Below, in pieces: positions 21,192 through 49,932 of a DNA stretch of 64,000 bases (positions are counted from its first letter, which is position 1; each line of letters begins with the position of its first letter). The translations under genes and the position numbers were made by a program. The notes under the pieces are model-generated. The model saw nothing but the letters and a program-made list of their open reading frames with translations, did not search any database and was not told the origin of the DNA. This stretch comes from an uncultured delta proteobacterium (GTDB lineage Bacteria; Myxococcota; Myxococcia; SLRQ01): NCBI GenBank assembly GCA_963727485.1, contig CAVSGM010000011.1:1-64000 (forward strand). Direction: 5' to 3'.

Positions 21192-21337
21192 GCGCAGTAC
21201 CCGGGGATCCCCCAGACCGGCCCGCATTCCACCGGGAGGAGGGAAGCTGCTGCGTGGCCAAAGAAGCCACTCTCACCAACGGGCACCGGGAGAACGTCCA
21301 CGGTCATGGACGAACGACGCCTGCCCTGAGCGGACAC

Positions 21338-21391
21338 GGGCCCGGCCCCGGGCGCTTCCCCGAAGCCGGGAGCGCTCCCGGTGCCGGGCCC
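21338..21391. terminator. Long GC-rich hairpin downstream of surface protein 2
   Basis: GGGCCCGGC...GCCGGGCCC outer arms with inner pairing. Confidence 0.55.
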
Positions 21392-21412
21392 TTCGGCGTG
21401 CGCGCCTTTGGC

Positions 21413-23233
21413 CTACGCGGCCGACCGCCCGCGGCGGCGGATCCCCGCGAGCACGATCCCCAGCATCACCAGGGACAGGGGCACGGCGCCGCCCTCACCG
21501 GCCGCCGAGCTGCAGCCGCAGAGCTCCCCGTCAGCACCGCCGCTGTGCCAGCCGCCGAAATGGTGGCAGACGCAGGTCGGAGCTCCGTCCTTGTCGGTCT
21601 CGCAGGTGCCAGCGACCGTGACGCACGAGCCGCCGCACGCGCACTTGTAGCTGCCGTCGGTGTTGGCGCAGTCAACGAGCATCCCGCAGGGGTGGTCGGC
21701 CGCGCACTCGTCGATGTCCACACAGGTCGTGCCGTCGGACTTGTACCCCTTCTGGCAGGTGCAGGTGTAGCCGTCGGCCGTGCTGGTGCAGGTGTCCCCA
21801 TGGGCTCCGCAGGGATCGGCGGCGCAGTGGTCGGTGGAGGTACAGGTCGTGCCGTCGCCGGTGTAGCCGGCGTTGCAGGCGCAGGTGACGCCGTTGGCGC
21901 CGTCGGTGCACGTGGCGTTGGCGTCGCACCCACCGTTGCCCGTGGCGCAGGTAGGCGTGCACAGCGTCCCGTCGCCCTGGTAGCCGGCGTTGCAGGCGCA
22001 GGTGTAGCTCCCCGGGGTGTTGGTGCAGGTGGCGTTGGCGTCGCACCCGCCGTTGGCGGTCTGGCACTCGTCGATGTCACTGCAGGTGGTGCCGTCGAAG
22101 GCATAGCCCGCCGGGCAGGTGCAGGTGTAGCCGCCCGAGGTGCTGGTGCAGGTGCCGCCCGGGCCGCAGAGGCCCGGCGTGGCGGTGCAGGCGTCGGTGG
22201 CCACGCACTGGCCCTGCGGGTCCTGCTGGTAGCCCGGCGCGCAGGAGCACGTGCTGAAGGTCGCCGGCGCCGTGACGCTGCACACCCACCCGGTCTCGAC
22301 GGTGCAGGTGTCGCTGCAGCCGTCGCCGGGGGCGGTGTTGCCGTCGTCGCAGCCCTCGGTGCCCGTCTTGATGTCGTCGCCGCAGGTCGCGACGCAGGCC
22401 TGGCCCGCCGTGGGGCAGGTGTAGCCCACCTCGACGTGCTGGCAGTCGCTGCTGCAGCCGTCACCACTCGCGGTATTTCCGTCGTCGCAGGCCTCGCCCG
22501 CGCCGATGACGCCGTCGCCGCAGGTCGAGAGGCGGCAGTCCGACGCCGGGATCGTCACGTCGTCGATCATGGGGCCGGCGGGGCTGGGGTCCGAGCCCGA
22601 GAAGTAGAGGATGGTCGAGGTGCTCTTTGCCGTGAACTCGAAGCGCAGGGGCTGCCAGGGCGCAACCTGGGCGTTGCCCTGGGTCTGGTACTCGGCGGTG
22701 GCAAACGGGGTGGCGATGTCCTGGGCGAGGCCGGCGCCGGTGTCGTCGGCGACGCCGATGGTGAGCACCCGGGTGCAGGTGGTGGCGCAGGACTGGCCGG
22801 TGTAGGTCACGCAGTTGGCGTTGCCCAAGAACTGCACCCCGTAGGTCTTGCCTGGCTCGGTGGTGAGCACCTGGGCGATGACCCCCTGGCTCGAGCCGTT
22901 GAGGTCGATGGAGTAGGTGCCTTCGCCGGAGGGCCAGCAGGCGGAGAGGGAGGTGCCGTCGAGCCAGTCGATGGTGCCCGAGACCAGCTGCCAGTCGGCC
23001 GAGCTGGGCTGGGTCTCGAAGCCCGGGTCCTTCACGGCGAGGGGCGCCAGGGTCTGGCAGGTGGCGCCGGTCTCGATGGTGCAGTCCGCGGCGCACCCGT
23101 CGCCGGCGCGGGTGTTGCCGTCGTCGCAGGTCTCACCCGGGTCGAGGACCCCGTCGCCACAGGCCGCGAGCGCCGGCCGCGCCACCACCAGGGACACTCC
23201 TACCGCCGCCAGAACCGCCAGGAACCTGCGCAT
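21413..23233 (-). CDS. Cys-rich surface protein 2 (paralog)
   Basis: Same architecture as 19167..21101, near-identical tail AVPLSLV.LGIVLAG.RRRGRSAA. Confidence 0.88.
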   Translation of the reverse strand: MRRFLAVLAAVGVSLVVARPALAACGDGVLDPGETCDDGNTRAGDGCAADCTIETGATCQTLAPLAVKDPGFETQPSSADWQLVSGTIDWLDGTSLSACWPSGEGTYSIDLNGSSQGVIAQVLTTEPGKTYGVQFLGNANCVTYTGQSCATTCTRVLTIGVADDTGAGLAQDIATPFATAEYQTQGNAQVAPWQPLRFEFTAKSTSTILYFSGSDPSPAGPMIDDVTIPASDCRLSTCGDGVIGAGEACDDGNTASGDGCSSDCQHVEVGYTCPTAGQACVATCGDDIKTGTEGCDDGNTAPGDGCSDTCTVETGWVCSVTAPATFSTCSCAPGYQQDPQGQCVATDACTATPGLCGPGGTCTSTSGGYTCTCPAGYAFDGTTCSDIDECQTANGGCDANATCTNTPGSYTCACNAGYQGDGTLCTPTCATGNGGCDANATCTDGANGVTCACNAGYTGDGTTCTSTDHCAADPCGAHGDTCTSTADGYTCTCQKGYKSDGTTCVDIDECAADHPCGMLVDCANTDGSYKCACGGSCVTVAGTCETDKDGAPTCVCHHFGGWHSGGADGELCGCSSAAGEGGAVPLSLVMLGIVLAGIRRRGRSAA

Positions 23234-23376
23234 CCACTGCCTCCGATGTTTGGACTTGAGGTGTTCCGCGCGAGCGCGGACTGGGCGAGAGATACCCAGC
23301 CTGACGGTCCGCTACACCGTCTCTCCAGGTCAACCACCGGCCTGCCCCTAGGGACTGGTGGCATCGGGGCTCTCAC

Positions 23377-23401
23377 GCCCCTCGCCCGGTGGGCGAGGGG
23401 C
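23377..23401. terminator. Hairpin downstream of surface protein 3
   Basis: GCCCCTCGCCC-GGT-GGGCGAGGGGC perfect 11-bp stem. Confidence 0.55.
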
Positions 23402-23462
23402 TCGGCTGGGGGTCAAGCCGTGTTGAAGCCGGCCCCGCCAAGGGCCGTGAGGTGCGACCGGC

Positions 23463-25844
23463 CTACCGCCGTCGGCGGCGGGTCAGCAGGGCGACGCCGA
23501 GGCCGGCCAGGAGCAGCCAGCTGGAGGGATTGCCGCTGCCCCGGGAGGCCGCCACGGCGCAGCCGACGCTGCTCCCATTGGTCGTCGAGCCGCTCGAGGC
23601 GACGCAGCTCTTCCCGCTCAGGGCATAGCCCGGCGCGCAGGAGCACACGCTCCCCGTCGCCGGCGGGGTGACGGTGCACTGCCACCCGGTCTCGACGGTG
23701 CACTTGGCGCTGCACCCGTCCCCCGCCGTGGTGTTGCCGTCGTCGCAGCTCTCGGCGCTCTGCTTGATGCCGTCGCCGCAGCTGGAGGTGCAGGCCTGGC
23801 CGGGGGTGGCGCAGGTGTAGCCCACCTCGATCTGTTGGCAGTCGCTGCTGCAGCCGTCGCCGCTCATGTTGTTGCCGTCGTCGCAGACCTCGCCGGGGTC
23901 GAGGGTCCCGTTTCCGCAGCTCGTGGGGTGGCAGTCGGAGGTGGGGGCGGTCACGTCGTCGATCATGGGGCCGGCGAGGTGGGTGTCCGAGCCCGAGAAG
24001 AAGAGGACGGTGGATGTGCTCTGGGCGGTGAACTCGAAGCGCAGGGGCTGCCAGGGCACCGACTGGGGGCTGCCCTGGGTCTGATAGACGGCGGTGGCGA
24101 AGGGCGTGGTGACGTCCTTCGCCAGATCGGCGTCGGTCGCGTCGGCCGCCCCCACGGTGAGCGCGCGGCTGCAGGTGCTGGCGCAGGACTGGCCGCTGAC
24201 GTTCACGCAGTTGGCGTCGCCGAGGAACTGCACCCCGTAGGTCTTGCCCGGCTCGGTGGTGAACACCTGGGCGAGGACGCCCTGGCTGGAGCCGTTGAGG
24301 TCGATGGAGTAGTGGCCGTCGCCGGCGGGCCAGCAGGCGTTGCCGTCGGTGTCGCTGGGCCGGTCGGTGGTCCCGGTGACCGTCTGCCAGTTGCTGGGGC
24401 CGAGCGGCGTCTCGAAGCTCTGGTTCTTCACGGTCAGCGGCGTCAGGGTCTCGCAGGTGGTGCCGGCCTCGACGGTGCAGTCCGGGGCGCAGCCGTCCCC
24501 GGCGCGGTTGTTGCCGTCGTCACACGCCTCGCCGGTGTCCAGGATCCCGTCCCCGCACGAGGGCAGGGCGCAGGTCGTTCCGTCGCCGGTGTAGCCGGCG
24601 TCGCAGGTGCACACGGCGCTGCCGCTGCTCGAGTCGCAGGTGGCGTTGGCGTCGCAACCGCCGTTGTTCTGGGTGCAGGGGTCGACCTTGGTGCAGGTGG
24701 TGCCGTCGCCGGTGTAGCCGCTGTTGCAGGTGCACACCGGGCTGCCGGTGCTGCCGTCGCAGGTGGCGTTGGCGTCGCAGCCGCCGTTGCCGGTGGCGCA
24801 GGGGTCGATGGACACGCAGGCGCCGCTGGGGTCCTGCTGGTAGCCCGGCGCGCAGGTGCACAGGCTCCCGGTCGCCGGGGGCGTCACGGTGCACGCCCAC
24901 CCGGTCTCCACGGTGCAGGTGGCGCTGCAGCCGTCACCGGGGGTGGTGTTGCCGTCGTCGCAGCCCTCGGTGTTCTGCTTGGTCCCGTCGCCGCAGGCGG
25001 GGACGCAGGGCTGGCCGGGGGTGGCGCAGGTGTAGCCCGCCTCGGTGTGGCAGTTGCCGTCGCAGCCGTCGCCGCCCACCGTGTTCCCGTCGTCGCAGGT
25101 CTCCCCGGCATCGATGATGCCGTTGCCGCAGGCCGACGGCTGGCAGTCCGAGTCGGGGATGACCACGGCGTCGAGCATCGGCCCGGCCAGCGCGGTGTCC
25201 GAGCCGGAGAAGTAGAGGATGGTGGAGGCGCTCTTGGCGGTGAACTGGAAGCGGAAGGGCTGCCACCCCACGGCCTGGGGGCTGCCGCTCATGGTGTACT
25301 CGACGGTCTTGTAGGCGTTGGGGATGTCGGCGGCGAAGCCCGCGCCGGTGTCGTCGGCGACGCCGAGGGTCATCAGCCGGGTGCAGGTGCTGGCGCAGGA
25401 CACGCCGGCCTGGGTGACGCAGTTGGCGCTCCCCAGGAAGTGCACCGCGTAGGTGGTCCCGGGGACGGTGGCGAGGGCCTGGGCCAGCACCCCCTGGCTC
25501 GAGCCGTTGAGGTCGATGGAGTAGCTGCCGTCGCCCGAGGGCCAGCAGGCGTTGGCCTGGGTGTTGGACTGCCAGTCGATGGTCCCCGAGACCAGCTGCC
25601 AGTCGGCGGCGCTCGGCTGGATCTCGAAGTGTGCGTTCTTCACCGTGAGCCCGGTCGCCGTAGGACAGCTGAAGCCGGACTCGACGGTACAGGTCGGCGA
25701 GCAGCCGTCGCCGGCGCGGAGGTTGCCGTCGTCACAGGCCTCGCCGGCGTCGAGGATCCCGTCCCCGCAGGCCGCGAGCGCGGGCCTCGCCACGCCCAGG
25801 AGCAGGCCCATCAGACCCACGGTCACCACCGAAGACGCACGCAT
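23463..25844 (-). CDS. Cys-rich surface protein 3 (two choice-of-anchor C-like domains)
   Basis: Internal duplication of the repeat+domain module; tail GCAVAASRG...WLLLAGLGVALLTRRRRR. Confidence 0.88.
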   Translation of the reverse strand: MRASSVVTVGLMGLLLGVARPALAACGDGILDAGEACDDGNLRAGDGCSPTCTVESGFSCPTATGLTVKNAHFEIQPSAADWQLVSGTIDWQSNTQANACWPSGDGSYSIDLNGSSQGVLAQALATVPGTTYAVHFLGSANCVTQAGVSCASTCTRLMTLGVADDTGAGFAADIPNAYKTVEYTMSGSPQAVGWQPFRFQFTAKSASTILYFSGSDTALAGPMLDAVVIPDSDCQPSACGNGIIDAGETCDDGNTVGGDGCDGNCHTEAGYTCATPGQPCVPACGDGTKQNTEGCDDGNTTPGDGCSATCTVETGWACTVTPPATGSLCTCAPGYQQDPSGACVSIDPCATGNGGCDANATCDGSTGSPVCTCNSGYTGDGTTCTKVDPCTQNNGGCDANATCDSSSGSAVCTCDAGYTGDGTTCALPSCGDGILDTGEACDDGNNRAGDGCAPDCTVEAGTTCETLTPLTVKNQSFETPLGPSNWQTVTGTTDRPSDTDGNACWPAGDGHYSIDLNGSSQGVLAQVFTTEPGKTYGVQFLGDANCVNVSGQSCASTCSRALTVGAADATDADLAKDVTTPFATAVYQTQGSPQSVPWQPLRFEFTAQSTSTVLFFSGSDTHLAGPMIDDVTAPTSDCHPTSCGNGTLDPGEVCDDGNNMSGDGCSSDCQQIEVGYTCATPGQACTSSCGDGIKQSAESCDDGNTTAGDGCSAKCTVETGWQCTVTPPATGSVCSCAPGYALSGKSCVASSGSTTNGSSVGCAVAASRGSGNPSSWLLLAGLGVALLTRRRRR

Positions 25845-33617: not shown

Positions 33618-34892
33618 TCAGCCCTGGCGGTCGCAGGCGGCGGCCCTCTCGAGGAGCAGGTCGCGCTCCCGGTGGTTGGCGGTCATCACGGCCGCGGCCT
33701 CGAAGGCCGCCCGGGCCTCGCCCCAGCGCCCGAGCTTCTCCAGGAGGTCTCCGCGCACCGCCGGGAGCAGGTGGTAGCGCGCCAGCGCCGGTGCGTCGGC
33801 GAGGTCCTCGACCAGGGCCAGGGCCGGCTCGGGGCCGTAGGCCATGGCCACCGCCACGGCGCGGTTCAGCGCCACCACCGGCGACCCGGTCACCTCCACC
33901 AGGGCGTCGTAGAGGGCCACGATCCGCGGCCAGTCGGTGGCCTCGGCGGTGGTCGCCCGGGCGTGGCAGGCGGCGATGGCGGCCTGGAGGGCGTAGGGGC
34001 GAAGCGCCTCGGCACGGCCGGCGGCGAGGGCCTCCGCCCGTGCCAGGGCGGCGAGCCCCCGGCCGATGAGCAGGTGATCCCACCGCGCCCGGTCCTGGTC
34101 CAGGAGCAGCACCGGCGCGCCCCCCGGCCCGACCCGGGCCCGCAGCCGCGAGGCCTGGAGCTCCATCAGCGCCGTGAGGCCGTGCACCTCGGCGTCGTCG
34201 GGGACCAGCGTCGTCAGGATCCGTCCCAGGCGCAGGGCGTCCTCGCAGAGGTCGGCGCGGATCCAGTCGTCGCCGGCGGTGGCCGCGTAGCCCTCGTTGA
34301 AGATGAGGTAGACCGTCTCCAGGACCGAGGGCAGGCGCGCGGCGAGGTCGGGCCCCCGGGGCACCTCGAAGGGGACCTGGGCTTCGGCGAGGGTGCGCTT
34401 GGCCCGGACGATGCGCTGGGCCACCGTGGGCACCGGCTTGAGGTACGCCCGGGCGATCTCCTCGGTGGTCAGGCCCCCGAGCAGCCGCAGGGTCAGGGCC
34501 ACCCGGGCCTCGGCGGAGAGCACCGGGTGGCAGGCGATGAGCATCAGGCGCAGGAGGTCGTCGCCCACCGCGTCGTCGAGGGCGGCCTCGGGATCCGGGC
34601 GCGCCACCCCGTCCCCGGCCTCCGCCACCAGGGCGTCGTGCTTGCGCTCGCGCATCCGGTCCCGGCGCAGCCGGTCCAGGGCGCGGTTCCGGGCGGTGGC
34701 CATGAGCCAGGCGCCCGGGTTGTCGGGGATCCCCGAGGCGGGCCAGCGCTCGAGGGCGGTCACCAGGGCCTCCTGGGCCAGGTCCTCGGCGAGGTCGAGG
34801 TCGCGCACCAGGCGCAGGAGGCCCCCGATGAGCCGGGGCGCCTCGATCCGCCACACCGCCTCGATGGCCGCCCGTGCCGCCGCCTCGCCCAT
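33618..34892 (-). CDS. ECF sigma factor, ECF42-type with TPR/DUF6596 extension
   Basis: AEDLAQEA; WPASGIPDNPGAWL; LIACHPVL; YLIFNEGY; LLLDQDRARWD. Confidence 0.92.
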   Translation of the reverse strand: MGEAAARAAIEAVWRIEAPRLIGGLLRLVRDLDLAEDLAQEALVTALERWPASGIPDNPGAWLMATARNRALDRLRRDRMRERKHDALVAEAGDGVARPDPEAALDDAVGDDLLRLMLIACHPVLSAEARVALTLRLLGGLTTEEIARAYLKPVPTVAQRIVRAKRTLAEAQVPFEVPRGPDLAARLPSVLETVYLIFNEGYAATAGDDWIRADLCEDALRLGRILTTLVPDDAEVHGLTALMELQASRLRARVGPGGAPVLLLDQDRARWDHLLIGRGLAALARAEALAAGRAEALRPYALQAAIAACHARATTAEATDWPRIVALYDALVEVTGSPVVALNRAVAVAMAYGPEPALALVEDLADAPALARYHLLPAVRGDLLEKLGRWGEARAAFEAAAVMTANHRERDLLLERAAACDRQG

Positions 34893-34901
34893 CGCCCGGC
34901 G

Positions 34902-35387
34902 TCAGCCCGCCGCCGCCCGCTCCAGGGCGGCGAGGTCGATCTTGACCATCTGCAGCAGGGCGTCGGAGACGCGCCGGGCCGCCGCCGGGTCGGAGTGGTT
35001 CATCAGCTCGCCGAGGCGCGCCGGGACGATCTGCCACCGGACCCCGAAGCGGTCGGTGAGCCAGCCGCAGGCCTGGGTGTGGCCGCCGCCCTCGAGGAGC
35101 GCGTCCCAGTAGCGATCGAGCTCGGCCTGGTCCTCGCAGGTCACCATCAGGGAGATGGCGTCGTTGAAGGGGTCGTGGGGCCCGGCGCTCATGGCCTGGA
35201 AGGGCTGGCCGAGGAGGGTGAACTCGACGACCTTCACCGAGCCCGGGGGGCCGCTCGGCGACTCGCCGGGCAGCGCGGTCACCCGCTCCACCCGGGAGTC
35301 CGGGAAGATCGACGCGTAGAACCGGGCCGCCTCCTCGGCGTCGCGGCTGTACCAGAGGAACGGATGGATGCGCACCTTGGCCGGCAT
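34902..35387 (-). CDS. VOC family protein (PhnB / 3-demethylubiquinone-9 3-MT-like)
   Basis: IHPFLWY; FNDAISL; CGWLTDRFGVRWQIVP. Confidence 0.9.
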   Translation of the reverse strand: MPAKVRIHPFLWYSRDAEEAARFYASIFPDSRVERVTALPGESPSGPPGSVKVVEFTLLGQPFQAMSAGPHDPFNDAISLMVTCEDQAELDRYWDALLEGGGHTQACGWLTDRFGVRWQIVPARLGELMNHSDPAAARRVSDALLQMVKIDLAALERAAAG

Positions 35388-35403
35388 CGTCAATCTCCTC
35401 CCG

Positions 35404-35838
35404 CTAGGGTTCGTGATGGCCCTCGGTCTCGGCGCGGAGCCGCGCCTCCTGCTCGCGCAGCTCGGGGGTCATCGCCTCGCCGAAGTCCTCGACCTCGAAG
35501 ATGGGCCGCAGCTCCAGCTCCGCCTCCTCGCCGGGCATGGGGTCGGGGCAGCGCCGGGCCCAGGCCACCGCCTCGTCCATGGACTTCACCTGCCAGATCC
35601 AGTAGCCCGCGACCAGCTCCTTGGTCTCGGCGAAGGGGCCGTCGATGACCGTCCGCTCGCCGCCCGCGAAGTGGATCCGCTTGCCCCGGCTGCTGGCATG
35701 GAGCCCGTCGCCGGCGAGCATCACCCCGGCCTTCACCAGGGCCTCGTTGAACTGGCCCATGGCCTCGAGGGTCTTCTCACCGGGCATCTTCCCGGCCTCG
35801 GAGCCCGGGGTCGCCTTCACCATCACCATGACGCGCAT
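35404..35838 (-). CDS. YciI/DGPF family protein
   Basis: IDGPFAETKELVAGYWIW. Confidence 0.92.
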   Translation of the reverse strand: MRVMVMVKATPGSEAGKMPGEKTLEAMGQFNEALVKAGVMLAGDGLHASSRGKRIHFAGGERTVIDGPFAETKELVAGYWIWQVKSMDEAVAWARRCPDPMPGEEAELELRPIFEVEDFGEAMTPELREQEARLRAETEGHHEP

Positions 35839-35857
35839 CGTCGGCTCCCTTCGTGGA

Positions 35858-36244
35858 TCACGGGTCGCGGGGCTCGGGCCCCATCCCCGGGTCGAACATC
35901 GGTCGCACCTCGGACTCGCCCTCGAACTCGGGCCAGTGCTCCCGGTGCAGCTCCATGAACCGGCGGGCGAGGGCCACCGCCTCCTCGCGGGTGTCGGCCT
36001 CGAGGATGGCCCAGCCGCCGATGATCTCCTTGGCCTCGGTGAAGGGCCCGTCGGTGACCGCGAGCTCGCCGCCGGAGAGCCGGACTCGGAAGCCCTCCGC
36101 GCTCGGGAGCAGCCCCCCGGTGTCGACGAGGCTGCCGTCCGCGAGGGACTGCTTCACGAACTCGCCCATGGCCTCCAGCAGGGCCTTCGGGGGACCGGAC
36201 TCACGGAACGACTCGGCGTGCTTGATGAACGACAGGTACCGCAT
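35858..36244 (-). CDS. YciI/DGPF family protein
   Basis: TDGPFTEAKEIIGGW; SD AGGAGG. Confidence 0.9.
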   Translation of the reverse strand: MRYLSFIKHAESFRESGPPKALLEAMGEFVKQSLADGSLVDTGGLLPSAEGFRVRLSGGELAVTDGPFTEAKEIIGGWAILEADTREEAVALARRFMELHREHWPEFEGESEVRPMFDPGMGPEPRDP

Positions 36245-36274
36245 GGGGCCTCCTGGCTTGGGGTTCGACCAGGC

Positions 36275-36301
36275 GACGAACGGGCCCGGTCCGGATCGAC
36301 A
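36275..36301 (-). promoter_or_regulatory. ECF42-type promoter
   Basis: TGTCGAT-ccggaccgggcccg-TTCGTC upstream of the DGPF-DGPF-VOC-ECF operon. Confidence 0.7.
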
Positions 36302-36367
36302 CGCGCGGGGATCTTTCCGACCCCCCGGGGTCATACCCCCTGGACGCGGTGACCGGGACCCCCGGGC

Positions 36368-36802
36368 TCAGCTCCGAGGGCGCTGCTCGGGCGCGGTCCG
36401 CCGCCGAGCCTCCCGCTCGCCCCCGCCGAGGCCGAAGACCCCGCCGAGCTCGCCGGGCTCGAGGAGGGGCCGCAGCTCCAGGACCGCCTCCTCGTCGGGG
36501 CTGGCCGCCGGGCACCGCTGGGCCCACATCAGCGCCTCGTCCATGGACCCGACCTGCCAGATCCAGTAGCCGGCCACCAGCTCCCGGGTCTCGGCGAAGG
36601 GGCCGTCGACGATGGTCTGCTTGCCCTCGGCGAAGTGGACCCGCTTCCCCCGGTCGCTGGGGTGCAGGCCGTCGCCTGCGAGGAGCACCCCGGCCTTGGC
36701 CAGCGCCTGGGTGAAGGCGCGCATCTCGTCGAGACGAGCACCCGGCGGCCGCGCCCCCGCCTCGGACTGCCTCGTGGCCTTGAGCATGACCATCACGCGC
36801 AT
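36368..36802 (-). CDS. YciI/DGPF family protein (close paralog of 35404..35838)
   Basis: MRVMVMLKAT; VDGPFAETRELVAGYWIW. Confidence 0.9.
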   Translation of the reverse strand: MRVMVMLKATRQSEAGARPPGARLDEMRAFTQALAKAGVLLAGDGLHPSDRGKRVHFAEGKQTIVDGPFAETRELVAGYWIWQVGSMDEALMWAQRCPAASPDEEAVLELRPLLEPGELGGVFGLGGGEREARRRTAPEQRPRS

Positions 36803-37029
36803 GACTTCCCCCTTCGCCGACACCGGCGTGGCTCGAGTTTCGAACGTACCTGGACTCGTCGAACTCGCCCCCCCGGGCGGCCGGAGCGTGACCTCACCCC
36901 CGCACCCCATGGTTTACGTCCTGGGCGCTCGTGGCGCCAGCCGGCCCCGGGGGGAAGTCACGCCCCGGTTTGCCCACCCGGGCCTCCACCCCTACCTTCG
37001 CGCGCCGTCACCCCAACCGGAGGCACGAG

Positions 37030-39251: not shown

Positions 39252-39485
39252 CTACCCCTGGATCCAGGCGGCCACGTCGGCGGGACGCGGCACCCGCCCC
39301 GAGACCTTCATCACCCCGTCGACCGCCACCGCCGGGGTCCCGAGGACGCCCGCGGCGAGGATCGCCTGGACGTCCTCGACCTTCTCGAGCTCGACGTCGA
39401 CGCCCGTCGACGCCATCGCCTGGCGGATGACCTTCTCGGCGCGGCGGCAGTTGGCGCAGCCGGTTCCGTAGAGCTGGATCTTCAC
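39252..39485 (-). CDS. Small redox-active disulfide protein (MTH895-like thioredoxin)
   Basis: IQLYGTGCANC; GVLGTPAVAVDG. Confidence 0.9.
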   Translation of the reverse strand: MKIQLYGTGCANCRRAEKVIRQAMASTGVDVELEKVEDVQAILAAGVLGTPAVAVDGVMKVSGRVPRPADVAAWIQG

Positions 39486-39500
39486 GGGCTTCCCTCCGGT

Positions 39501-40562
39501 TCAGAGCACGGCGTTGAACAGGTAGCCGACCAGGAGGATCCCGGCGGCGACGATGCCGATGAAGGTGGCGATGAGACGCGGGCGCAGCACCTTGCGCAGG
39601 ATCACCATCTCCGGCAGCGAGAGGGCGACCACCGACATCATGAACGCCAGCACCGTGCCCAGGGCGGCGCCCTTGCCCAGCAGCGCCTCCACCACCGGGA
39701 TGATGCCGGCGGCGTTCGAGTACATCGGGACCCCGGCGGCGACGGCGACCGGCACCGCCCACCAGGCGCTCCGGCCCATGATCGACGCCATGAAGTCCGC
39801 GGGCACGTACCCGTGGATCCCCGCGCCCACGGCGATCCCGGCGAGGACGTAGAGCCACACGTGGCCCACGATGTCGCGCACCGCCTCGCCCCCCATCCGC
39901 ACCCGGTCGTCCCAGGTCAGCGGCGTCTCCGGGAGCTCGGTGGCGGGCACCGCGGTGGCCCGCACCCAGGGCTCCACCTGGCCCTCGAGGTGCAGCCGGC
40001 CGATGGCCCAGCCGGCGACCATGGCCACCGCGAGGCCGGTGGCCGCGTAGAGGAGGGCCACCTGCCAGCCCACCAGGCCGAAGAGCAGCACCAGCGCCAC
40101 CTCGTTCACCATCGGCGCCGAGACCAGGAAGGCGAAGGTCACCCCCAGGGGCACCCCGGCGTTGACGAAGCCGATGAAGAGGGGCACCGCGGAGCAGGAG
40201 CAGAACGGGGTCACCACCCCCAGCAGCGCGGCCAGGGCGTCGCCGACGGTCTCCCGGCGGCCGGCGAGGAGGCGGCGGGTGCGCTCGGGGGTGAAGAAGC
40301 TGCGGACCACGCCCACGGCGAAGACCACCCCCACCAGGAGCAGGAGCACCTTTGGGGTCTCGAAGGTGAAGAAGGCCACCGCCTGCCCCAGGCGGCTCTC
40401 CTCGGCGAGGCCGAGCACCTGGTGGGTGAGCAGGCGCGAGAGGGGCGCCAGGGCCAGGTAGGCGGCGATCCAGGCGGCGAGGGCGAGGGCGCCCAGGCCC
40501 ACCAGGCGCCAGGGGCCGTCGCGCCGCAGCCGCGGGCCCCGCGCGTGGGTCAGCTCGCTCAC
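39501..40562 (-). CDS. ArsP/DUF318 family permease
   Basis: TPFCSCSAVPLFIG; SAPMVNEV; GVPMYSNAAG; ALSLPEMVIL. Confidence 0.9.
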   Translation of the reverse strand: MSELTHARGPRLRRDGPWRLVGLGALALAAWIAAYLALAPLSRLLTHQVLGLAEESRLGQAVAFFTFETPKVLLLLVGVVFAVGVVRSFFTPERTRRLLAGRRETVGDALAALLGVVTPFCSCSAVPLFIGFVNAGVPLGVTFAFLVSAPMVNEVALVLLFGLVGWQVALLYAATGLAVAMVAGWAIGRLHLEGQVEPWVRATAVPATELPETPLTWDDRVRMGGEAVRDIVGHVWLYVLAGIAVGAGIHGYVPADFMASIMGRSAWWAVPVAVAAGVPMYSNAAGIIPVVEALLGKGAALGTVLAFMMSVVALSLPEMVILRKVLRPRLIATFIGIVAAGILLVGYLFNAVL

Positions 40563-40942
40563 CCTGCGAGCCCCGGGGCGGAGGCGCCTGGCCCGCAGCA
40601 CGCGTCCTGGCAGGCCTTCATCTCCAGCCAGCGGTCGAGCCGCCTGCGGAGGTCGGCCATCGCCGCCTCGCCGAGGAGCGCCGGCAGCCGCTCGACCAGC
40701 TGGCGGCGCGCCGGGTCGAGGTCCGGGTCGAGGCGGTAGTGGAGCCACACCCCGCGGCGCCGGTCGATCACCAGCCCGGCCCCGCGCAGGTAGCGCATGT
40801 GGCGCGACGCCTTGGACTGGGTGATCCCGAGGATGGCCTCGATGTCGCAGACGCAGGCCTCGCCCCGGAGGAGGATCACCGCGAGGATCTGGAGGCGGGT
40901 CTCGTCGCCCAGGGCCTTGAAGGTCTCGGAGAGTGTCCTCAT
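40559..40942 (-). CDS. arsR: ArsR/SmtB family regulator
   Basis: FKALGDETRLQIL; EACVCDI; SRHMRYL; C-terminal CQDACC. Confidence 0.88.
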   Translation of the reverse strand: MRTLSETFKALGDETRLQILAVILLRGEACVCDIEAILGITQSKASRHMRYLRGAGLVIDRRRGVWLHYRLDPDLDPARRQLVERLPALLGEAAMADLRRRLDRWLEMKACQDACCGPGASAPGLAG

Positions 40943-41021
40943 GGAGACCCATGTAATCGCGTACCCGGTTGGATCCAGCTGCGGGTTGCGGTCCGGTCGC
41001 CGTCTGGCGATGGTGGGGCCC

Positions 41022-41627
41022 ATGCCAGACCTCGACGCGCTGGGTGACGACGACGAGCACGAGGACCGCCTCTTCGAGGCCCTGGACCTGGAGGGCGTGG
41101 CGCTCTCCGGCCGGCGCTTCACCGGCTGCACCTTCCGGCACCTCCGGGGCCAGGCGAGCCGGTGGCAGGGGGCGCACCTCGAGGACTGCGCCTTCGAGAA
41201 CTGTGACCTCACGGGGATGGTCCCCGGGAATCTCCGGGCCCACGACGTGCGCTTCGTGGGGTGCAAGCTCCTGGCGGTCCGGTGGACCCGGGCGATGGGC
41301 TACCCGCGCCTCGGCTTCGAGGACTGCCTGATGCGCTACGCGGCCTTCAGCGACCTGGACCTCCGGCGGACGGAGCTGCTCCGCTGCCGCCTCACCGAGG
41401 CGAGCTTCACCGGCGTCGATCTCACGGACGCCGACTTCGCCGGCTCGGACCTCACCGGCGCGACCTTCCAGGGCACCACCCTCGCCGGCGCCGATCTCTC
41501 CACCACCGAGGGGCTCTTCCTCGACCCGGCCCGCAACCGGGTGAAGGGCGCCCGGGTGCCGGTGGAGACCGCGGTGCTGCTGGCGATGTCCCTGGGGCTG
41601 CGGGTGCGCGGGTACGACGAGGGGTAG
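41022..41627 (+). CDS. Pentapeptide repeat protein
   Basis: ASFTGVDLTDADFAGSDLTGATF repeats. Confidence 0.9.
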   Translation: MPDLDALGDDDEHEDRLFEALDLEGVALSGRRFTGCTFRHLRGQASRWQGAHLEDCAFENCDLTGMVPGNLRAHDVRFVGCKLLAVRWTRAMGYPRLGFEDCLMRYAAFSDLDLRRTELLRCRLTEASFTGVDLTDADFAGSDLTGATFQGTTLAGADLSTTEGLFLDPARNRVKGARVPVETAVLLAMSLGLRVRGYDEG

Positions 41628-42799: not shown

Positions 42800-43681
42800 T
42801 CAGTCCTCGTCCTCGCCGAGGAGCGCCCGCAGGAGCGGGTTGGGGAAGCGCCGGCTCAGGGTGATGGCGTGGAAGGTCTCCTCGAGGCCCGGGAGGGCCG
42901 CGACCTCGATGAGCTCGCCGGTGTCGAGCTCGTCCTTGACCACGATGGGCGGCACCACCGAGAGGCCCGGGTGCTCCCGGGCCACCAGGCGCAGCATCGC
43001 CATGTCGTCCACCTCGGCGGCGATCGCCGGCCGCACCCCGAGGCGCTCGGCGAGGGCGTCGAAGCCGGCGCGGATGCTGGTCTGGAGGGCCGGGACCACC
43101 AGGGGCTCGGTGGCGAGCAGCGTCTTGATCTTGCGCCGGCGCCGGGGCTTCGAGGGCGGGCCCACCAGGCTCACCGGTTGGCTGGCGAGGTGGTGGGCCA
43201 CCCAGGGCGTCGCCGCGTCCCGGGCGGGGACCGAGTTGGCGAGGACCACGTCCACCCGGTGGAGCTCCAGGGCCTGCAGGAGCTCGGCGAGGGCCCCGGA
43301 GCGCACCACCAGCTCCACGTCGTCGCGTTCGAGCAGGGGCTGGACGAAGCCGAGCTGGAAGTTCCGCGAGAGGGTGGCCACCGCGCCCACCCGGAGCACC
43401 TGCCGCGCCCGACCCACCGGATCCTGGAGGACGCCGAGGAGCTCGTCCCCGGTGGTGAAGATGGCGTCGGCATGATCGAGGGTGATGCGCCCGGCCTCGG
43501 TGAGCACCAGCTGCCGCCCCCGGCGCTCGAAGAGGTCGTGGCCCAGGGCCTCCTCCAGGCTCTGGATCTGCACCGAGACCGCGGACTGGGAGACGTGGAG
43601 GTGGCGGGCGGCCCGGGTGAGGTTGCCCTCGTGGGCCACCGCCCAGAAGTAGCGGAGGTGGTGGTAGTTGAGCGCGGCCAT
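42800..43681 (-). CDS. LysR family regulator (NhaR-like), divergent from the dab operon
   Basis: LNYHHLRYFWAVAHEGNLTRAA; AEVDDMAMLRL. Confidence 0.93.
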   Translation of the reverse strand: MAALNYHHLRYFWAVAHEGNLTRAARHLHVSQSAVSVQIQSLEEALGHDLFERRGRQLVLTEAGRITLDHADAIFTTGDELLGVLQDPVGRARQVLRVGAVATLSRNFQLGFVQPLLERDDVELVVRSGALAELLQALELHRVDVVLANSVPARDAATPWVAHHLASQPVSLVGPPSKPRRRRKIKTLLATEPLVVPALQTSIRAGFDALAERLGVRPAIAAEVDDMAMLRLVAREHPGLSVVPPIVVKDELDTGELIEVAALPGLEETFHAITLSRRFPNPLLRALLGEDED

Positions 43682-43694
43682 GGTGGCGACCGCA

Positions 43695-43711
43695 GTTCTA
43701 CATAACAGAAC
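43695..43711. promoter_or_regulatory. LysR box (T-N11-A dyad)
   Basis: GTTCT-ACATAAC-AGAAC in the AT-rich intergenic region. Confidence 0.7.
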
Positions 43712-43770
43712 GTCACTTGCCAAACATTGAATTGGAAACAACAGGGGTCGCCGCCTATATCACGCCCTGC

Positions 43771-45315
43771 ATGGCCGCCCCCCTCGCTCTCCTGCCGCTC
43801 CTCGCGCCCCTCGGCCTCGTCCTCGCCGCCTTCGTGGGCTGGCGGACGCCCGGCCCCCGGCCCGCCCGGGCCCTGGCGGTGGCGACCCTCGCCACCTGGC
43901 TCGCCCTGGCGCTCGCCGCCGTCGCCGCCGGCTCGGTCATCGTCCTCGGCGCCGCCACCAGCCCGCTCGTCGGCGTCGCCGGGGTGGGCCTCTCGGTGCG
44001 CCTCGATCCCCTGAGCGGGACCCTGGCGCTCCTGGTGGCCTTCATCGGGGTGGTGGTGGTCCGCTACAGCCGCCACTACCTCGACGGCGAGGCGCGCCAG
44101 GGGGCCTTCGTCGCCCGCCTCTGCCTCGCCCTGGCGGCGGTGCTCCTCCTGGTCCTCTCCGGGAACCTCGCCCAGCTCCTCGTCGCCTGGATCGCCACCG
44201 GCCGGGTGGTGGAGGGGCTCCTGCGCTTCTACCCGGGTCGGCCCCGGGCACGGCGGGCGGCGGCGCGACAGAAGCGCGTCTCCCGGATCGGCAACCTGGC
44301 GCTCCTCGGCGCCGTGCTGCTCCTGCGTCACGCCTTCGGCACCCTGGATCTCGCCGCCCTCGCCGTGGCCGCCGGGCACCTCGCCGGCGGCGCCCTCCCG
44401 GTCACCGTCCCCCTCGCCATCGCCCTCATCATCGTCGCCGCCCTCATCAAGAGCGCCCAGGTCCCGACCCACGGCTGGCTCCCCCAGGTCGCCGAGGCGC
44501 CGACCCCCGTCTCCGCCCTCCTCCACGCGGGCATCGTCAACGGCGGCGGCTTCCTGGTCATCCGCCTGGCACCGGTGATGGTCCTCTACCGCCCGGCGCT
44601 CCTCGCCCTGGCGCTCGCCGCCGGTGCCAGCGCCGTGGTCGCCTCGGCGGTGATGCTCACCCAGCAGAGCACCAAGGCGGCGCTGGCCTGGTCCACCGTG
44701 GCCCAGATGGGCTTCATGCTCGTGGAGTGCGGGATCGGCGCCTTCGCCGCCGCGGCCCTCCACCTCGTCGCCCACTCCTTCTACAAGGCCCACGCCTTCC
44801 TCACCGCCGGCGAGGTGCCGCGGTCGGCCCCCGCCGCCGCCGGCCCCGCCGCGCCCTCGGTGCCGGCCATCGCCGTCACCCTCGCCGCGGCCCTCGCCGG
44901 CTACCTCGCCGTCGCCTTCTCCCTCGGGATCACCTGGCACGAGGCCCCGGCGCGCCTGGCCCTCGGCGCCGTCCTCGCCCTCGGCCTCACCCACCTGCTG
45001 GTGCAGGCGCGCAGCGGCGCCCGGGTCCTCGCCCGGGCCGCGGCGGTGGCGGCGCTCCTCGCCGCCGGGTACCTCGCCCTGGAGCTCGGCGCCGAGGTCC
45101 TCCTCGCCCCGGTGCTCCCGGCCCACGCCGCGCCGGGCCTGGCCGTGAACGGGGTCCTCGCCGCGGTGGTCCTCGGCTTCGCGGGGCTCGTGGGCCTCCA
45201 GCTCCGCCTCCCGGCCCTCGGCGCCTCGCCTCGGTGGCGGGCCCTCTACGTCCACCTCCGCCAGGGGCTCTACCTCGACCTCTGGCTCGATCGCCGTGAG
45301 GCCGCCCAATGGTGA
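43771..45315 (+). CDS. dabB: Inorganic carbon transporter membrane subunit (NuoL/ND5-like; DabB/MpsA)
   Basis: KSAQVPTHGWL; EAPTPVSALLHAGIVNGGG; STVAQMGFM; HLVAHSFYKAHAFL; overlaps the DUF2309 gene. Confidence 0.9.
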   Translation: MAAPLALLPLLAPLGLVLAAFVGWRTPGPRPARALAVATLATWLALALAAVAAGSVIVLGAATSPLVGVAGVGLSVRLDPLSGTLALLVAFIGVVVVRYSRHYLDGEARQGAFVARLCLALAAVLLLVLSGNLAQLLVAWIATGRVVEGLLRFYPGRPRARRAAARQKRVSRIGNLALLGAVLLLRHAFGTLDLAALAVAAGHLAGGALPVTVPLAIALIIVAALIKSAQVPTHGWLPQVAEAPTPVSALLHAGIVNGGGFLVIRLAPVMVLYRPALLALALAAGASAVVASAVMLTQQSTKAALAWSTVAQMGFMLVECGIGAFAAAALHLVAHSFYKAHAFLTAGEVPRSAPAAAGPAAPSVPAIAVTLAAALAGYLAVAFSLGITWHEAPARLALGAVLALGLTHLLVQARSGARVLARAAAVAALLAAGYLALELGAEVLLAPVLPAHAAPGLAVNGVLAAVVLGFAGLVGLQLRLPALGASPRWRALYVHLRQGLYLDLWLDRREAAQW

Positions 45316-47706
45316 TCCCCGTCTTCCAATCCCTGGCGCCCCTCCCGCCGACCGAGGAGATCGCCGAGGCCGTGCGCCAGGCCGTGTCCCGGGTGGCCCC
45401 CCTGTGGCCCCTCGACGCCTTCGTGGCCGTGAACCCGCTCCTCGGCCTCGCCGACCAGGACCTCGCCGAGGCCTCGGCGACCGTGGCCCGGGCCGCCGGC
45501 GCCCGCCTGACCCTGCCCCGGCGCCACTACGCCGACGCCCTCGCCGACGGGCGCATCACCGAGCGGGACCTCGCCGAGGCCCTCGCCGAGGCCCGGGGCA
45601 GGCCGGGGGTCCCGGCCACCGTCGCCGAGCTGGTGGCCGCCGCCTCCGAGGCCGAGCCCGCGCGCCGGCCCCTGCCCACCGTCGCCGACGTCGCCGGTTC
45701 GGTCACCGGCCACGACTGGGCCGCCGAGGTGGTGGACGCGGTGGGCGCCTGGGCCGCGGGGTACTTCGCCGAGCGCCCGGCAACCTGGGCCTCGCCGTTC
45801 CGGGACCTGCCGCCCTTCGCCGCCTGGCGCGCCGAGGCCGTCCACGACCGGGCCCCCGAGGCTCTGGGCGTCGCCGGCTTCCGGGACTTCGCCGCCGCCC
45901 TCCCGGACGACGCCGCGGCCGCCACCGCCCTCCTGGTGGCGCGCCTCGGGGTCCCCGAGGCCGGGCTCGACGACTGGCTCCACCGGCTGCTGATGACCGT
46001 CGCCGGGTGGGCCGGCCACGGGCGCTACCGCGACTGGGAATCCCGCGGACCCCGAGGGGGCAAGCGACACCGCCGCCGGGGTCCTCGCGGTGCGCCTCGC
46101 CTGGGAGGTCGCCCTCCTCGAGGGCCTCGAGGTCCCGGGCCTCGCCCCCGCCTGGGCTCGCGCCCGCGACCGCCTCGCCGAGCCCGGGGACCCGGCGCCC
46201 TTCGCGGTGGACGCCGTCCTCCACGCCGCCTGGGAGAAGGGCTGGCAGCGGCGCCTCACCGACGACCTCGCCGGCGCCGCGCCGGGCGCCCGCGCCGATT
46301 CCGCCGACGGCTCCGACGCCGCGCCTCGCCCCCGCCTCCAGGCGGCCTTCTGCATCGACGTGCGCTCCGAGGGTGTGCGCCGGGCCCTGGAGTCGGCGGG
46401 CCCCGAGATCGAGACCCTGGGCGTCCCCGGCTTCTTCGGCTTCCCCCTGGCCTGGGGCACGGGCGCCCTCTGCCCGGCCATCGTCCCCGCGAGCCTCCCG
46501 GTCGCCGAGCGCCCCGAGGACGCGGCCGCCGCCCGCGACCGGGGCGCCTTCGCCCGGGCCTTCAAGTCCTTCAAGCTCGCGGCGGTCTCGAGCTTCGGCT
46601 TCGTGGAGGCCCTCGGCCTCACCTTCCTCTTCCAGCTCCTCGCCCGGGCGTTCCGCTGGCGCCCCGGGGCCCGGGACGACGCCGGCGCCACCGCCCGCCT
46701 CGAGCTCGACGAGGCGGTGCCGCTCGAGGCCCGGGTCGACGCCGCCGCCACCGCCCTGGGGGCCATGGGGCTGACCCGCGGTTTCGCCCGGACGGTGCTC
46801 CTGGTGGGCCACGGCGCCACCACCGCCAACAACCCCCACGCCTCGGTCCTCGACTGCGGCGCCTGCGGGGGCCGCAGCGGCGACGCCAACGCCCGCATCG
46901 CCGCCGCCACCCTCAACGAGCCGGCGGTCCGCGCGGGCCTCGCCGACCGGGGGATCGCCGTCCCCGCGGACACGGTCTTCCTCGCCGCCCACCACGACAC
47001 CACCTGCGACACCCTGGCGCTCCTCGACGACGTCCCCGAGGCCCACCGCGCCGAGCCCCACCTCGCCGCGCGCCTCGTCGAGGCCGGGGACGCCGCCGCC
47101 GCCGCCCGCGCCGCCCGGGACCTCCCGGGGGCCTCGGTGGCGGCCCTGCGCAGCCGGAGCCGCGACTGGTCCCAGGTCCGCCCGGAGTGGGGCCTCGCCG
47201 GGTGCGCCGGCTTCGTCATCGCCCCCCGGGCCCGCACCCGCGACCTCGACCTCGGCGGCCGGTGCTTCCTCCAGAGCTACGACTGGCGCCGGGACCCGGA
47301 CGCCCGGATCCTCGAGGGGATCCTCGCCGGTCCGGTACGGGTCGCCGGCTGGCTCTCGCTCCAGTACTACGCCTCGGCGGTCGACCCGGCGGTCTTCGGC
47401 AGCGGCAACAAGGTCCTCCACAACCCGGTGGGCACCGCCGGGGTCCTCGAGGGCGGCGGCGGCAATCTCAAGGTGGGCCTCCCCTGGCAGTCGGTGAGCG
47501 ACGGGGCGCGCCTGGTCCACGAGCCGAGGCGCCTCACCGTCGCCGTCGCCGCGCCCCCCGAGGTCCTCCGCGCCATCGTCGCCCGGCAGCCGCAGCTGCG
47601 CACCGCCCTCGACCACCGGTGGATCCACCTCCTCGCCCTCGACGACGCCGGCCGCGTGGCCTGGCGTCACGGCGCCCCCCGGCCCCAGGTGGTCCCCGAG
47701 ACCTGA
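45309..47706 (+). CDS. dabA: Inorganic carbon transporter catalytic subunit DUF2309 (DabA/MpsB), frameshift near 46060
   Basis: APLWPLDAFVAVNP; FCIDVRSE; GHG..NNPHASVLDCGACGG; DWSQVRPEWGL; GSGNKVLHN; HEPRRL. Confidence 0.92.
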
Positions 47707-47716
47707 AGGAACGCCC

Positions 47717-48211
47717 ATGCAGTGCTTCGCCATCGTCCGTGACGCCGAGGCCCTCGCCAGAGCCTGCGAGGACCTCTCGGATCTCCTGGAGTGGACCCGC
47801 CGCGCCGGGGACGACGCCCCCGAGCTCCTCGGGATCTGGCTCGACCCGGCGCAGGTGGTGGAGGTGCCGGCGTCCCTCGGCCCGGTGGGCCCCGTCGACC
47901 GCAACCGAGGGCCCTGGCAGATCGCCGCCTCCGCGGGCCTCTCGGGGCTCTGGACCCTCTGCTGGATCGAGGGCCCGCCCCTGGACCGTCGGACCCTGGT
48001 GACCGCCCTCGACGGGACGGGGTCCGGCGCCGGGGGCTTCCACCCGGTGTTCGGTCGGGAGGCCATCGGGAGCGCCCACCATCGGGAGCTCGGCGCCCTC
48101 GCCGAGCGCCGCGGCGACCTGATAAGGTCCCCGCTCTTTCTCGATGGGGAGAGCGGTCGCCTGGCGCCGCCCTCCGAGCCCACCCGATGGCGACGCGCCC
48201 AGTCCAGCTGA
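47717..48211 (+). CDS. Hypothetical protein inside the dab-pur operon
   Basis: SD AAGGA, 10 nt after the dabA stop; overlaps purK start; GC3 bias; no family recognised. Confidence 0.65.
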   Translation: MQCFAIVRDAEALARACEDLSDLLEWTRRAGDDAPELLGIWLDPAQVVEVPASLGPVGPVDRNRGPWQIAASAGLSGLWTLCWIEGPPLDRRTLVTALDGTGSGAGGFHPVFGREAIGSAHHRELGALAERRGDLIRSPLFLDGESGRLAPPSEPTRWRRAQSS

Positions 48212-49442
48212 AGCTTCCGGCTCCCGACGCCCCGGCCCTGGGGATCCTCGGCGGGGGTCAGCTGGGGCGGATGCTCGCCGAGTCGGCCCTGCGCCAGGGG
48301 CTGCGCCCGGTGGTCCTGGCGACGTCGGCCGAGGTCCCCGCGGCCATCGACGGCGTGGACCTCCACGTCGGAGCCCTCGACGACCCGGACGCCCTCGAGG
48401 CCCTGGTCGCCCAGGTCAATCACCTCACGGTGGAGAACGAGTTCCTCGACCTGGGCCGGATCGAGGCGGCGCTGGCCGGCAAGCCCTCGGTCCACATCCG
48501 GCCCGGCCTCGACGCCATCGCCGTCTCCCAGGACAAGCTGGCCCAGAAGCGCCTCTTCAGCCGCCTCGGGATCCCCACCGCCCCCTGGGAGGTGGTGCAC
48601 CCGGCGCGCCTCGAGGCCGACCTCGCCCGGGTGGGGCGGCGGTTCGGGCACCGCTTCGTCCTCAAGTGGTCGCGCTTCGGCTACGACGGCCACGGCAACC
48701 ACGTGGTGACCTCCGCCACGGGCCTCGGGGATCCCGAGCTGGCGCGCTTCTGCGAGCGGGGGGTGGCGAAGGGCGCCGAGCTCTACGCCGAGGCGATGAT
48801 CGACTTCCGCTGCGAGCTGGCCATGGTCTCCACCCGGAGCGCCGCCGGGGAGCAGGTCTACTTCCCCCTGGTCGAGAGCCGCCAGGAGCGCGGAGTGTGC
48901 CGGGAGGTCCTGGGGCCGGCGACGGCGCTGGGGGGGGCCCGGCACTCGACGAGGCGGCGCGCTCGGTCCTCGGGACCCTGGGCGCCCACCTCGCGTGGAG
49001 CGGCACGTTTGCGGTGGAGTTCTTCCTCGACGCGGACGGATCGCTGCTCGCCAACGAGATGGCCCCCCGGGTCCACAACACCGGCCACTACACCCTCTTC
49101 GGCGACGAGCCGAGCCAGTTCGACCTCCACGTCCAGGCGGTGTGCGGCCTCGAGCTGAAGGCCCCGGCGGTGCGCGGCCTGGTGGCGATGCGCAACCTCC
49201 TCGGGCCCTGGGACGTGGCGCGGGGCCGGCCCTGTCCGCCGCCGCGCCGCGAGCCGCCCGCCGGCGTCGACCTCTACTGGTACTTCAAGACCACCGTGTC
49301 CCCGGGGCGCAAGATGGGCCATCTTACGGGCCGGGCGGACACGCCCGAGGCCCTGGAGGACCTCCTCGAGGCGATGCGCGCCTACGAGCAGGCGGTGTGG
49401 CGAGACCTGGAAAGGAGCGCGGACGATGGCGAGGGTCCCTGA
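48187..49442 (+). CDS. purK: N5-carboxyaminoimidazole ribonucleotide synthase (frameshift at G8 48930-48937)
   Basis: [53 protein letters not shown]. Confidence 0.93.
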
Positions 49443-49932
49443 AGGCGGCGGCGCCCGGGTGGCGATCATCATGGGCTCGGACTCGGACCTCCCGGTGATG
49501 CAGGGGGCCGCCGACGCCCTCGACGCCCTGGGGGTCGACTACGAGCTGGCCATCGTCTCCGCCCACCGCACCCCCGAGCGCATGGCCGACTTCGCCGGCG
49601 CCGCGGCGGGTCGGGGGCTCTCGGTGATCATCGCCGGCGCCGGGGGCGCGGCCCACCTCCCGGGGATGGTCGCGGCCCACACGACGCTCCCGGTGATCGG
49701 GGTGCCGGTGCCCGTGGGGCACCTGCAGGGCACCGACGCGCTCTTGTCCATCGTCCAGATGCCCACGGGGGTGCCGGTGGCTGCGGTGGCCATCGGCGGC
49801 GCCTTCAACGCCGGCCTCCTCGCCGCACAGATCCTCGCCGCCGGGGGCGAGAAGCCCGACGCCGCGCTGGCCGCGCGCCTCGCCGACTACAAGGCCGAGC
49901 TGCGCCAGAAGGTCCTCGACAAGAAGATCTGA
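49426..49932 (+). CDS. purE: N5-CAIR mutase (class I PurE)
   Basis: [37 protein letters not shown]. Confidence 0.97.

Follow-up and report, generated by a model that had tools for sequence, protein, structure and literature searches.

We report here a gene cluster in a 64-kb stretch of DNA from an uncultured delta proteobacterium (contig CAVSGM010000011.1; the whole stretch is called the window below), part of a 14-contig, 5.55-Mb, 73%-GC assembly that is 93% complete. A lysR gene is divergent from the co-directional genes dabB-dabA-orfX-purK-purE, which encode a DAB-type inorganic carbon pump, a protein of an unnamed family (OrfX), an N5-carboxyaminoimidazole ribonucleotide (N5-CAIR) synthetase and a class I N5-CAIR mutase. 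We consider it probable, from comparison of gene content and order, that these genes act as one low-CO2 operon that pairs bicarbonate supply with the demand of PurK. The tight gene junctions, the sole copies of purK and purE, a LysR dyad kept in 40 intergenic regions, the lack of dabA and PurK_C in family relatives and the recurrence of the pairing elsewhere point in this direction. LysR would activate the dabB promoter at inorganic-carbon shortage, DabAB would turn CO2 into bicarbonate by means of the membrane potential, and the same transcript would supply PurK, which would spend ATP and bicarbonate to form N5-CAIR for PurE. Coupling would lie in shared expression and the bulk bicarbonate pool, with no physical channel, and the join of dab and purKE may have been retained since both modules serve growth at low CO2. 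The chemistry of the pump and of PurK is established for homologs; co-transcription, the CO2 signal and the role of OrfX are what we infer. In our assessment, known parts have been linked convergently, and what is new is the dab-purEK arrangement, of which an incomplete literature search without supplements returned no description, together with a candidate low-CO2 protein family, OrfX.

The layout of five co-directional genes with a divergent LysR, as given in the initial annotation, was reproduced in all coordinates, overlaps and the single gap (Table 1): dabB and dabA overlap by 7 nt, dabA and orfX are 10 nt apart, orfX overlaps purK by 25 nt and purK overlaps purE by 17 nt. In the assembly, 1-nt frameshifts split dabA (near 46039) and purK (in a G run near 48932-48938), and these are likely assembly errors. 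In run X3, one short-read contig (depth 4.7, related) lacks a base at dabA 46039 and another carries one extra base after 48937 in purK; these differences match each frame change, so that both breaks are likely to be sequencing errors. An unbroken 418-aa PurK, 99.6% identical, is present on another contig (P0003), and cysD on contig C3 of the same genome is likewise split. The dabA-orfX and orfX-purK joins are not misassemblies, since identical short-read contigs from two salt-marsh metagenome runs span both (X2, 47625-47848, and X1, 48085-48271, each with 0 differences). A further contig with 5 differences (X4) spans purK-purE (49323-49571), and no piece bridging dabB and dabA was among the short-read contigs listed. 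A scan for sigma-70 promoters and terminators returned 0 sites against 0.1 and 0.8 expected and is uninformative at 75% GC.

Table 1. Features of the lysR/dabB-dabA-orfX-purK-purE locus (positions in the window)
Feature	Position	Strand	Basis
lysR	42800..43681	-	ATG at 43681; PF00126 and PF03466; NhaR-like subfamily travelling with dabBA
Predicted LysR recognition site	43695..43711	unstranded	dyad GTTC-N9-GAAC with T-N11-A inside; GTTCTACATAACAGAAC
Second conserved AT-rich site	43724..43733	unstranded	window ACATTGAATT against consensus ATG.ATTTT
dabB/mpsA, NuoL-like membrane subunit, 514 aa	43771..45315	+	PF00361 and PF00662; PRK08168 345 bits, cut-off 380
dabA/mpsB (DUF2309)	45309..47706	+	ATG at 45309; PF10070 positions 1-212 and 228-747, in two frames
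orfX, 164 aa, unnamed family	47717..48211	+	GAAGGA ahead of ATG
purK, N5-CAIR synthetase	48187..49442	+	ATG at 48187; PF22660, PF02222, PF17769
purE, class I N5-CAIR mutase	49426..49932	+	TIGR01162 202.9 bits, cut-off 149.6

DabAB qualifies, by sequence, as a DAB2/MpsAB pump and is predicted to raise cytosolic bicarbonate. Features of such pumps were found, namely a PF10070 subunit with a Cys2His zinc site and an Asp-Arg dyad, and a directly adjoining NuoL-like PF00361 subunit with no DabC. The CID, GHG and CGAC motifs of DabA, earlier described as beta-carbonic-anhydrase-like zinc ligands, are indeed kept and align with C351/D353/R355, H524 and C539 of DabA2 (9rd0_A, E 2e-115). FVE and WGL align to E444 and L658, so that DabA keeps the equivalents of C351, D353, R355, E444, H524, C539 and L658, the finger-motif Glu444/Leu658 replacing the canonical Gln/His. 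In the portion of the DAB2 preprint available to us (10.64898/2026.03.13.711513), these residues are tied to activity or described as strictly conserved; vectorial CO2 hydration driven by the membrane potential is, by the same partial account, established in homologs. DAB2 of Halothiobacillus neapolitanus (DabA2-DabB2; PDB 9rd0/9rd8/9rd9) likewise consists of PF10070 and PF00361 subunits and shares the zinc site, the dyad, Glu444 and Leu658. By contrast, the pump reported here stands behind a divergent NhaR-like LysR, is followed by orfX-purK-purE, and belongs to a host without detected Rubisco. DAB-type pumps of non-autotrophs are also represented by MpsAB(C) of Staphylococcus aureus and ndhF-mpsB-canC of Bacillus subtilis (PMC6689103; 10.64898/2026.09.08.750065). 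The parts of these two sources available to us give mpsC or a carbonic anhydrase as operon partners, in place of the purKE seen here; they do not mention a LysR for either system, and both list purine carboxylation/PurK among bicarbonate users.

There is good comparative evidence that LysR controls dabBA, as the dyad and a second AT-rich site in the spacer are kept across 40 lysR-dabB intergenic regions. LysRs that are 45-67% identical face dabB divergently in 39 other loci, and these regions together with that of the window give the consensus gTTCt.t..aA.AgAACg and conserve GTTC-N9-GAAC as well as the AT-rich site, a probable activation site. The T-N11-A dyad noted in the initial annotation is therefore part of a conserved footprint. 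The best NCBIfam match of the regulator is NhaR (114 bits, under the cut-off of 219), and its score against CbbR is 61 bits (cut-off 450). Both are below the family cut-offs, and we assign the protein to another LysR subfamily.

PurK has preATP-grasp, ATP-grasp and PurK_C domains and a KMGH motif, the significance of which we presume. PurE scores above the TIGR01162 cut-off and has SAHR and AGGAAHLPG loops, the latter of a type that we take to mark class I enzymes. The identities first given to both enzymes agree with these domains and scores, and neither gene is out of the ordinary in function. Single copies of purK and purE were found in the genome (one purK locus), a second AIRC match on contig C2 being weak (51 bits) and probably LarB-like. 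The host was described as a heterotroph from the window, and no Rubisco was found genome-wide at 93% completeness. Single-query searches of the genome for SbtA and SulP found nothing. A search for alternative bicarbonate supply or a second purKE, which the initial annotation had called for, found no second purKE and one intact beta-carbonic anhydrase (contig C4); other bicarbonate users of the genome include three acyl-CoA carboxylase beta homologs.

The history of the locus is consistent with a gain of low-CO2 functions. Among four family relatives (completeness 85-98%), dabA and PurK_C are present in 0/4 and purE in 3/4. In two of these (G002, G003), purE directly follows a purD homolog; in the present genome, the gene after purD (C2:61695-62990) is an unrelated one, and there is no purE at the purD site. 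DabA clusters with alphaproteobacterial-type sequences (support 96, FastTree, 43 rows). PurK belongs to a divergent clade of about 400-420 aa, apart from the PurK of class relatives, whose gene order is purE-purK; its closest fetched relative (L061) is 59% identical. A search of 251 genomes from the G401 phylum, with a limit of E<=1e-60, gave no match to this PurK clade and hence no donor. In the PurE tree, PurE falls outside the starred group of G002/G003/G020. From these trees and gene orders, the lineage may have gained a lysR/dabBA(orfX) cassette and a divergent purK separately, with purE replaced or moved. According to the part of PMC10880623 available to us, PurE can carboxylate aminoimidazole ribonucleotide without PurK at very high dissolved inorganic carbon (DIC), cyanobacterial purK mutants require high CO2, and the presence of purK is taken as a sign of low-CO2 adaptation. 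Together with the relatives that lack dabA and purK, this makes it appear that the lineage gained two low-CO2 functions, now side by side. A partial precedent is the rbcLS-purK operon of Synechococcus elongatus PCC 7942, in which purK also stands with inorganic-carbon genes; in the part of the source at hand, purK lies in the rbc operon (10.1101/2021.04.20.440233), its partner there being Rubisco in an autotroph, whereas the partner here is an uptake pump plus purE.

Some further observations concern these purine genes. The PurE proteins of the family relatives (L024 8757-9290, L025 8210-8701, L026 8677-9159) occur without a detectable PurK. G002 and G003, both with purE behind purD, have a loop variant (AGMAAHLAG and AGLAAHLAG), and the PurE of G001 has the usual loop and is located after lpxB. 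At about 6260-6450 of L061, purK-purE come right behind a tRNA-like stretch, a possible integration site seen in an open reading frame (ORF) translation. Two Hymenobacter plasmids carry a pyrB-pyrC-purE-purK operon (L174 6945-11143, NZ_CP114768.1; L175 6768-11143, NZ_CP095065.1); these operons combine steps of pyrimidine and purine synthesis that lie near bicarbonate use, and the flanks fetched for them hold no DAB.

The linkage of dab to purEK is not confined to this contig. A survey of two proteobacterial classes found dabA in 24/251 and 58/251 genomes; purE was sought in 79 of these and found in 70. In 2 of the 70, a co-directional purE-purK begins within 1 kb beyond the dabA match (136 bp in G1103 and 791 bp in G1026); the distance is below 7 kb in 5 genomes and below 20 kb in 8. 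Under random placement one would expect 0.013, 0.37 and 1.06 (0.019, 0.54 and 1.54 with 90 same-phylum genomes added) against the 2, 5 and 8 seen; it counts against the operon that the distance cut-offs were picked after seeing the data and that kin genomes are not independent, so that these figures are indications and not P values. G1103, for which a search for Rubisco found none, has the order dabB-dabA-purE-purK, its dabA and purE being about 75 bp apart. In G1026, a cbbR-like lysR is followed by dabB-small ORF-dabA-P-II-purE-purK beside carboxysome genes. In the DabA tree, the present genome (G000), G1103 and G1026 occupy three distinct starred clades; their PurKs likewise come from three clades, and two gene orders are represented. 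As the linked proteins are thus in separate clades, the pairing seems to have been assembled convergently in at least three independent lineages.

Other observations weigh against a single operon logic. The same-phylum survey found dabA in 97 of 400 genomes; purE was sought in 96 and found in 90, and the linkage occurs in 0/90. In 19 of these the two genes share a contig, the nearest pair being 264 kb apart; in the other 71 they are on separate contigs, so that this group is partly uninformative. Across the surveys, G215 (only a 96-codon dabA match), G944 and G402/G405 were left out; the last two were examined via PurK instead and have PurK and dabA on different contigs. Neither purK nor purE is found in the flanks (up to 10 kb) of the nearest DabA loci (0/22), dabA is absent beside 80 PurK loci, L061 included, and the fetched 10-kb flanks of 6 plasmid purK loci hold no dab. 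G065 and G074 share the PurK clade and gene order, with their DABs located elsewhere. The dab-purKE unit as an inherited conserved cassette is rejected on these counts (0/22, 0/80, 0/90), with the linked cases in other clades; a neighbourhood survey, as first proposed, shows a pairing that recurs in two other DabA clades and is missing from the 90 same-phylum genomes. In G1026, dabA and purE are parted by a P-II gene and at least 225 bp, in a carboxysome region. Most of 110 DAB loci have none of the panel's bicarbonate-using genes nearby (purEK near 5, pyrC near 2, Sua5 near 1), and the rarity of the linkage itself argues against the operon. A native origin of PurE, grouped with G002/G003, withstands an AU test (p 0.113). 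As the genome has an intact beta-carbonic anhydrase, DAB is not the sole source of bicarbonate. An internal promoter may lie inside orfX, and a basal or separate promoter for purKE can be argued for, since sole copies are needed whenever purines are made.

The strongest competitor, which we regard as rather unlikely but deserving of weight, is that the genes are chance neighbours: a mobile lysR/dabBA-orfX cassette would have landed in an accessory region, just ahead of purKE, which would have its own promoter within orfX and no CO2 regulation. The window is pieced together from unrelated accessory genes, a same-phylum genome (G280) has lysR/dabB-dabA-orfX without purKE, and no linkage is seen in the phylum or next to the closest homologs of DabA and PurK. 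Conservation of orfX does not extend to its tail, where it overlaps purK, and overlapping ORFs are common in GC-rich genomes. Yet chance alone sits poorly with an independent recurrence far above random expectation, with family relatives that have neither module although both serve low CO2, and with the lack of any intergenic gap ahead of purK. It is improbable, to a greater degree, that there is one transcript with no dedicated rescue, on which the dab promoter would drive purKE at housekeeping level; the pump would then serve all carboxylases, PurK being just one client. This would suit the sole copy of purKE, the other bicarbonate users (the three acyl-CoA carboxylase beta homologs among them) and the proposal, in the part of PMC6689103 available, that MpsAB supplies several carboxylases in S. 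aureus; the conserved two-site LysR footprint, however, suggests regulated rather than constitutive expression. Physical channelling, in which DabA, perhaps via OrfX, would bind PurK and pass bicarbonate to it directly, was raised in the initial annotation and is very improbable: only adjacency, with orfX between dabA and purK, speaks for it, but the DabAs and PurKs of the three linked cases come from unrelated clades, orfX is missing in G1103 and G1026, OrfX is also found with SbtA and no DAB nearby, and the downstream partners of DAB differ between loci.

The low-CO2 operon remains our preferred reading, in a form narrower than the low-CO2 rescue module that had been proposed. The low-CO2 logic is upheld by the relatives without dabA and purK, by the recurrence of the pairing and by the presence of orfX in inorganic-carbon clusters. 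The notion of a rescue set needs qualification, as purKE is the only copy in the genome and not a spare, an intact beta-carbonic anhydrase is also present, and the linkage is rare and no inherited cassette.

OrfX was characterized by profile and model. Its profile has 92 HMMER matches at E<=0.001 including itself, mostly of 155-190 aa, and two long matches are spurious, which leaves about 90 clusters. A 66-row alignment has no Pfam match of relevance (one weak luciferase hit, E 0.003), and a profile search of the PDB gave no sequence match. The AlphaFold (AF2) model is alpha/beta with pLDDT 90, and there is no Foldseek match to it at E<=0.001. A known DAB accessory (P-II/SbtB, MpsC or DabC) was considered and rejected, there being no relevant match in Pfam, in the PDB by profile or in Foldseek. 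A word-index search returned orfX itself only, 0/60 relatives have it, none was found in viral contigs, and the profile gave 1 match in 22 chosen genomes, the already known G280.

Homologs of orfX occur on three plasmids among 72,556 plasmid records, of which only 126 carry dabA. All three have a DAB or SbtA-PII system within about 6 kb, and all three have Sua5/TsaC, crotonyl-CoA carboxylase, BioD or acyl-CoA carboxylase genes near. On Methylocystis rosea pGW6_1 (NZ_CP034087.1), lysR is divergent from dabB-dabA-bioD-ccr-cysD-bioA, and a converging arm reads ilvD-pyrC-DUF6671-acyl-CoA carboxylase-...-orfX. Nocardia cyriacigeorgica (NZ_CP026745.1) has a helix-turn-helix (HTH)-orfX fusion divergent from dabB-dabA-P-II, then Sua5 and DUF6671. 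Pseudomonas hygromyciniae pSDM007 (NZ_CP070507.1) has an nhaR-like lysR divergent from ...-DUF6671-pyrC-ilvD-Sua5-orfX-...-SbtA-P-II. Like the present locus, these clusters combine a regulator in divergent orientation with a transporter for inorganic carbon, a homolog of orfX and enzymes that use CO2 or bicarbonate, and the Methylocystis lysR/dabB-dabA has the same layout (LysR 52% identical); they differ in carrying bioD-ccr, Sua5, pyrC and DUF6671 where this locus has purKE. The clusters are known here from annotated records only, and no study of them was found. The orfX profile also matches 2/110 dabA loci (both carboxysome regions) and 1/18 further same-phylum dabA loci (G280, lysR divergent from dabB-dabA-orfX), counts that are biased by the choice of dabA loci, only the three plasmid cases being unbiased; it matches 0/80 PurK loci. 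With homologs in inorganic-carbon clusters and dabA loci and none in PurK loci, orfX thus goes with the carbon-uptake half of the locus.

Where OrfX is fused to an HTH, the fusion takes the place of the regulator, which suggests that OrfX is a sensing domain; in clusters for CO2 limitation the protein probably has an accessory or sensing role. We tentatively extend this to a wider proposal, on balance doubtful: bacteria might recurrently assemble low-CO2 islands in which a regulator switches on a DIC pump (DAB or SbtA) along with those bicarbonate-limited enzymes that the host needs (PurKE, TsaC/Sua5, Ccr, BioD, acyl-CoA carboxylase). OrfX would mark such islands and sense CO2 or bicarbonate, on its own in this genome and, in Nocardia, as effector domain of the HTH regulator that faces dabBA.

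Several genes recur in the loci examined. DUF6671 is present in all three orfX plasmid clusters and follows dabA in 10/110 loci, one locus being counted twice (L034, L190, L234, L238, L239, L241, L242, L244, L251); it is named in no paper found in the same literature search. A cysD homolog comes directly after dabA in 5/110 loci (L030, L031, L033, L154, L192) and is also found in two orfX clusters (L167, L169). The dihydroorotase gene pyrC adjoins dabBA in G917 and G1118 (L153 2571-3620, L207 11406). G280 shows three purE matches (C121, C26, C3).

Elsewhere in the window, the contig start (95-3736) holds a helicase fragment together with HTH-IrrE/M78 peptidase and PIN/DUF3368 genes, a content often met in mobile or defence DNA. 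No island boundary is apparent from the GC profile. On the minus strand, three genes in tandem encode EGF-like/DUF4215 repeat proteins (19170-25844). Three YciI-domain genes and a PhnB-like gene stand ahead of one for an ECF sigma factor with DUF6596 (33621-36910). A probable arsenic-resistance set comprises ArsR-like, ArsP-type permease and thioredoxin genes (39255-41243) with an ArsM-like methyltransferase (17362-18225); the permease ORF is apparently merged by a frameshift.

In conclusion, the purpose of DAB/MpsAB pumps in non-autotrophs, the reactions that they feed and their regulation have so far been largely inferred. The conserved LysR operator identified here is a directly testable target for a response to CO2 or bicarbonate, and OrfX represents an uncharacterised, confidently modelled family that recurs beside DIC transporters and carboxysome loci. 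The contrast with family relatives that have PurE but no PurK suggests that a change of purine route, from one suited to high CO2 to one suited to low CO2, can be traced. In at least three independent lineages, the order of the genes suggests the PurK step as one client of the pump.

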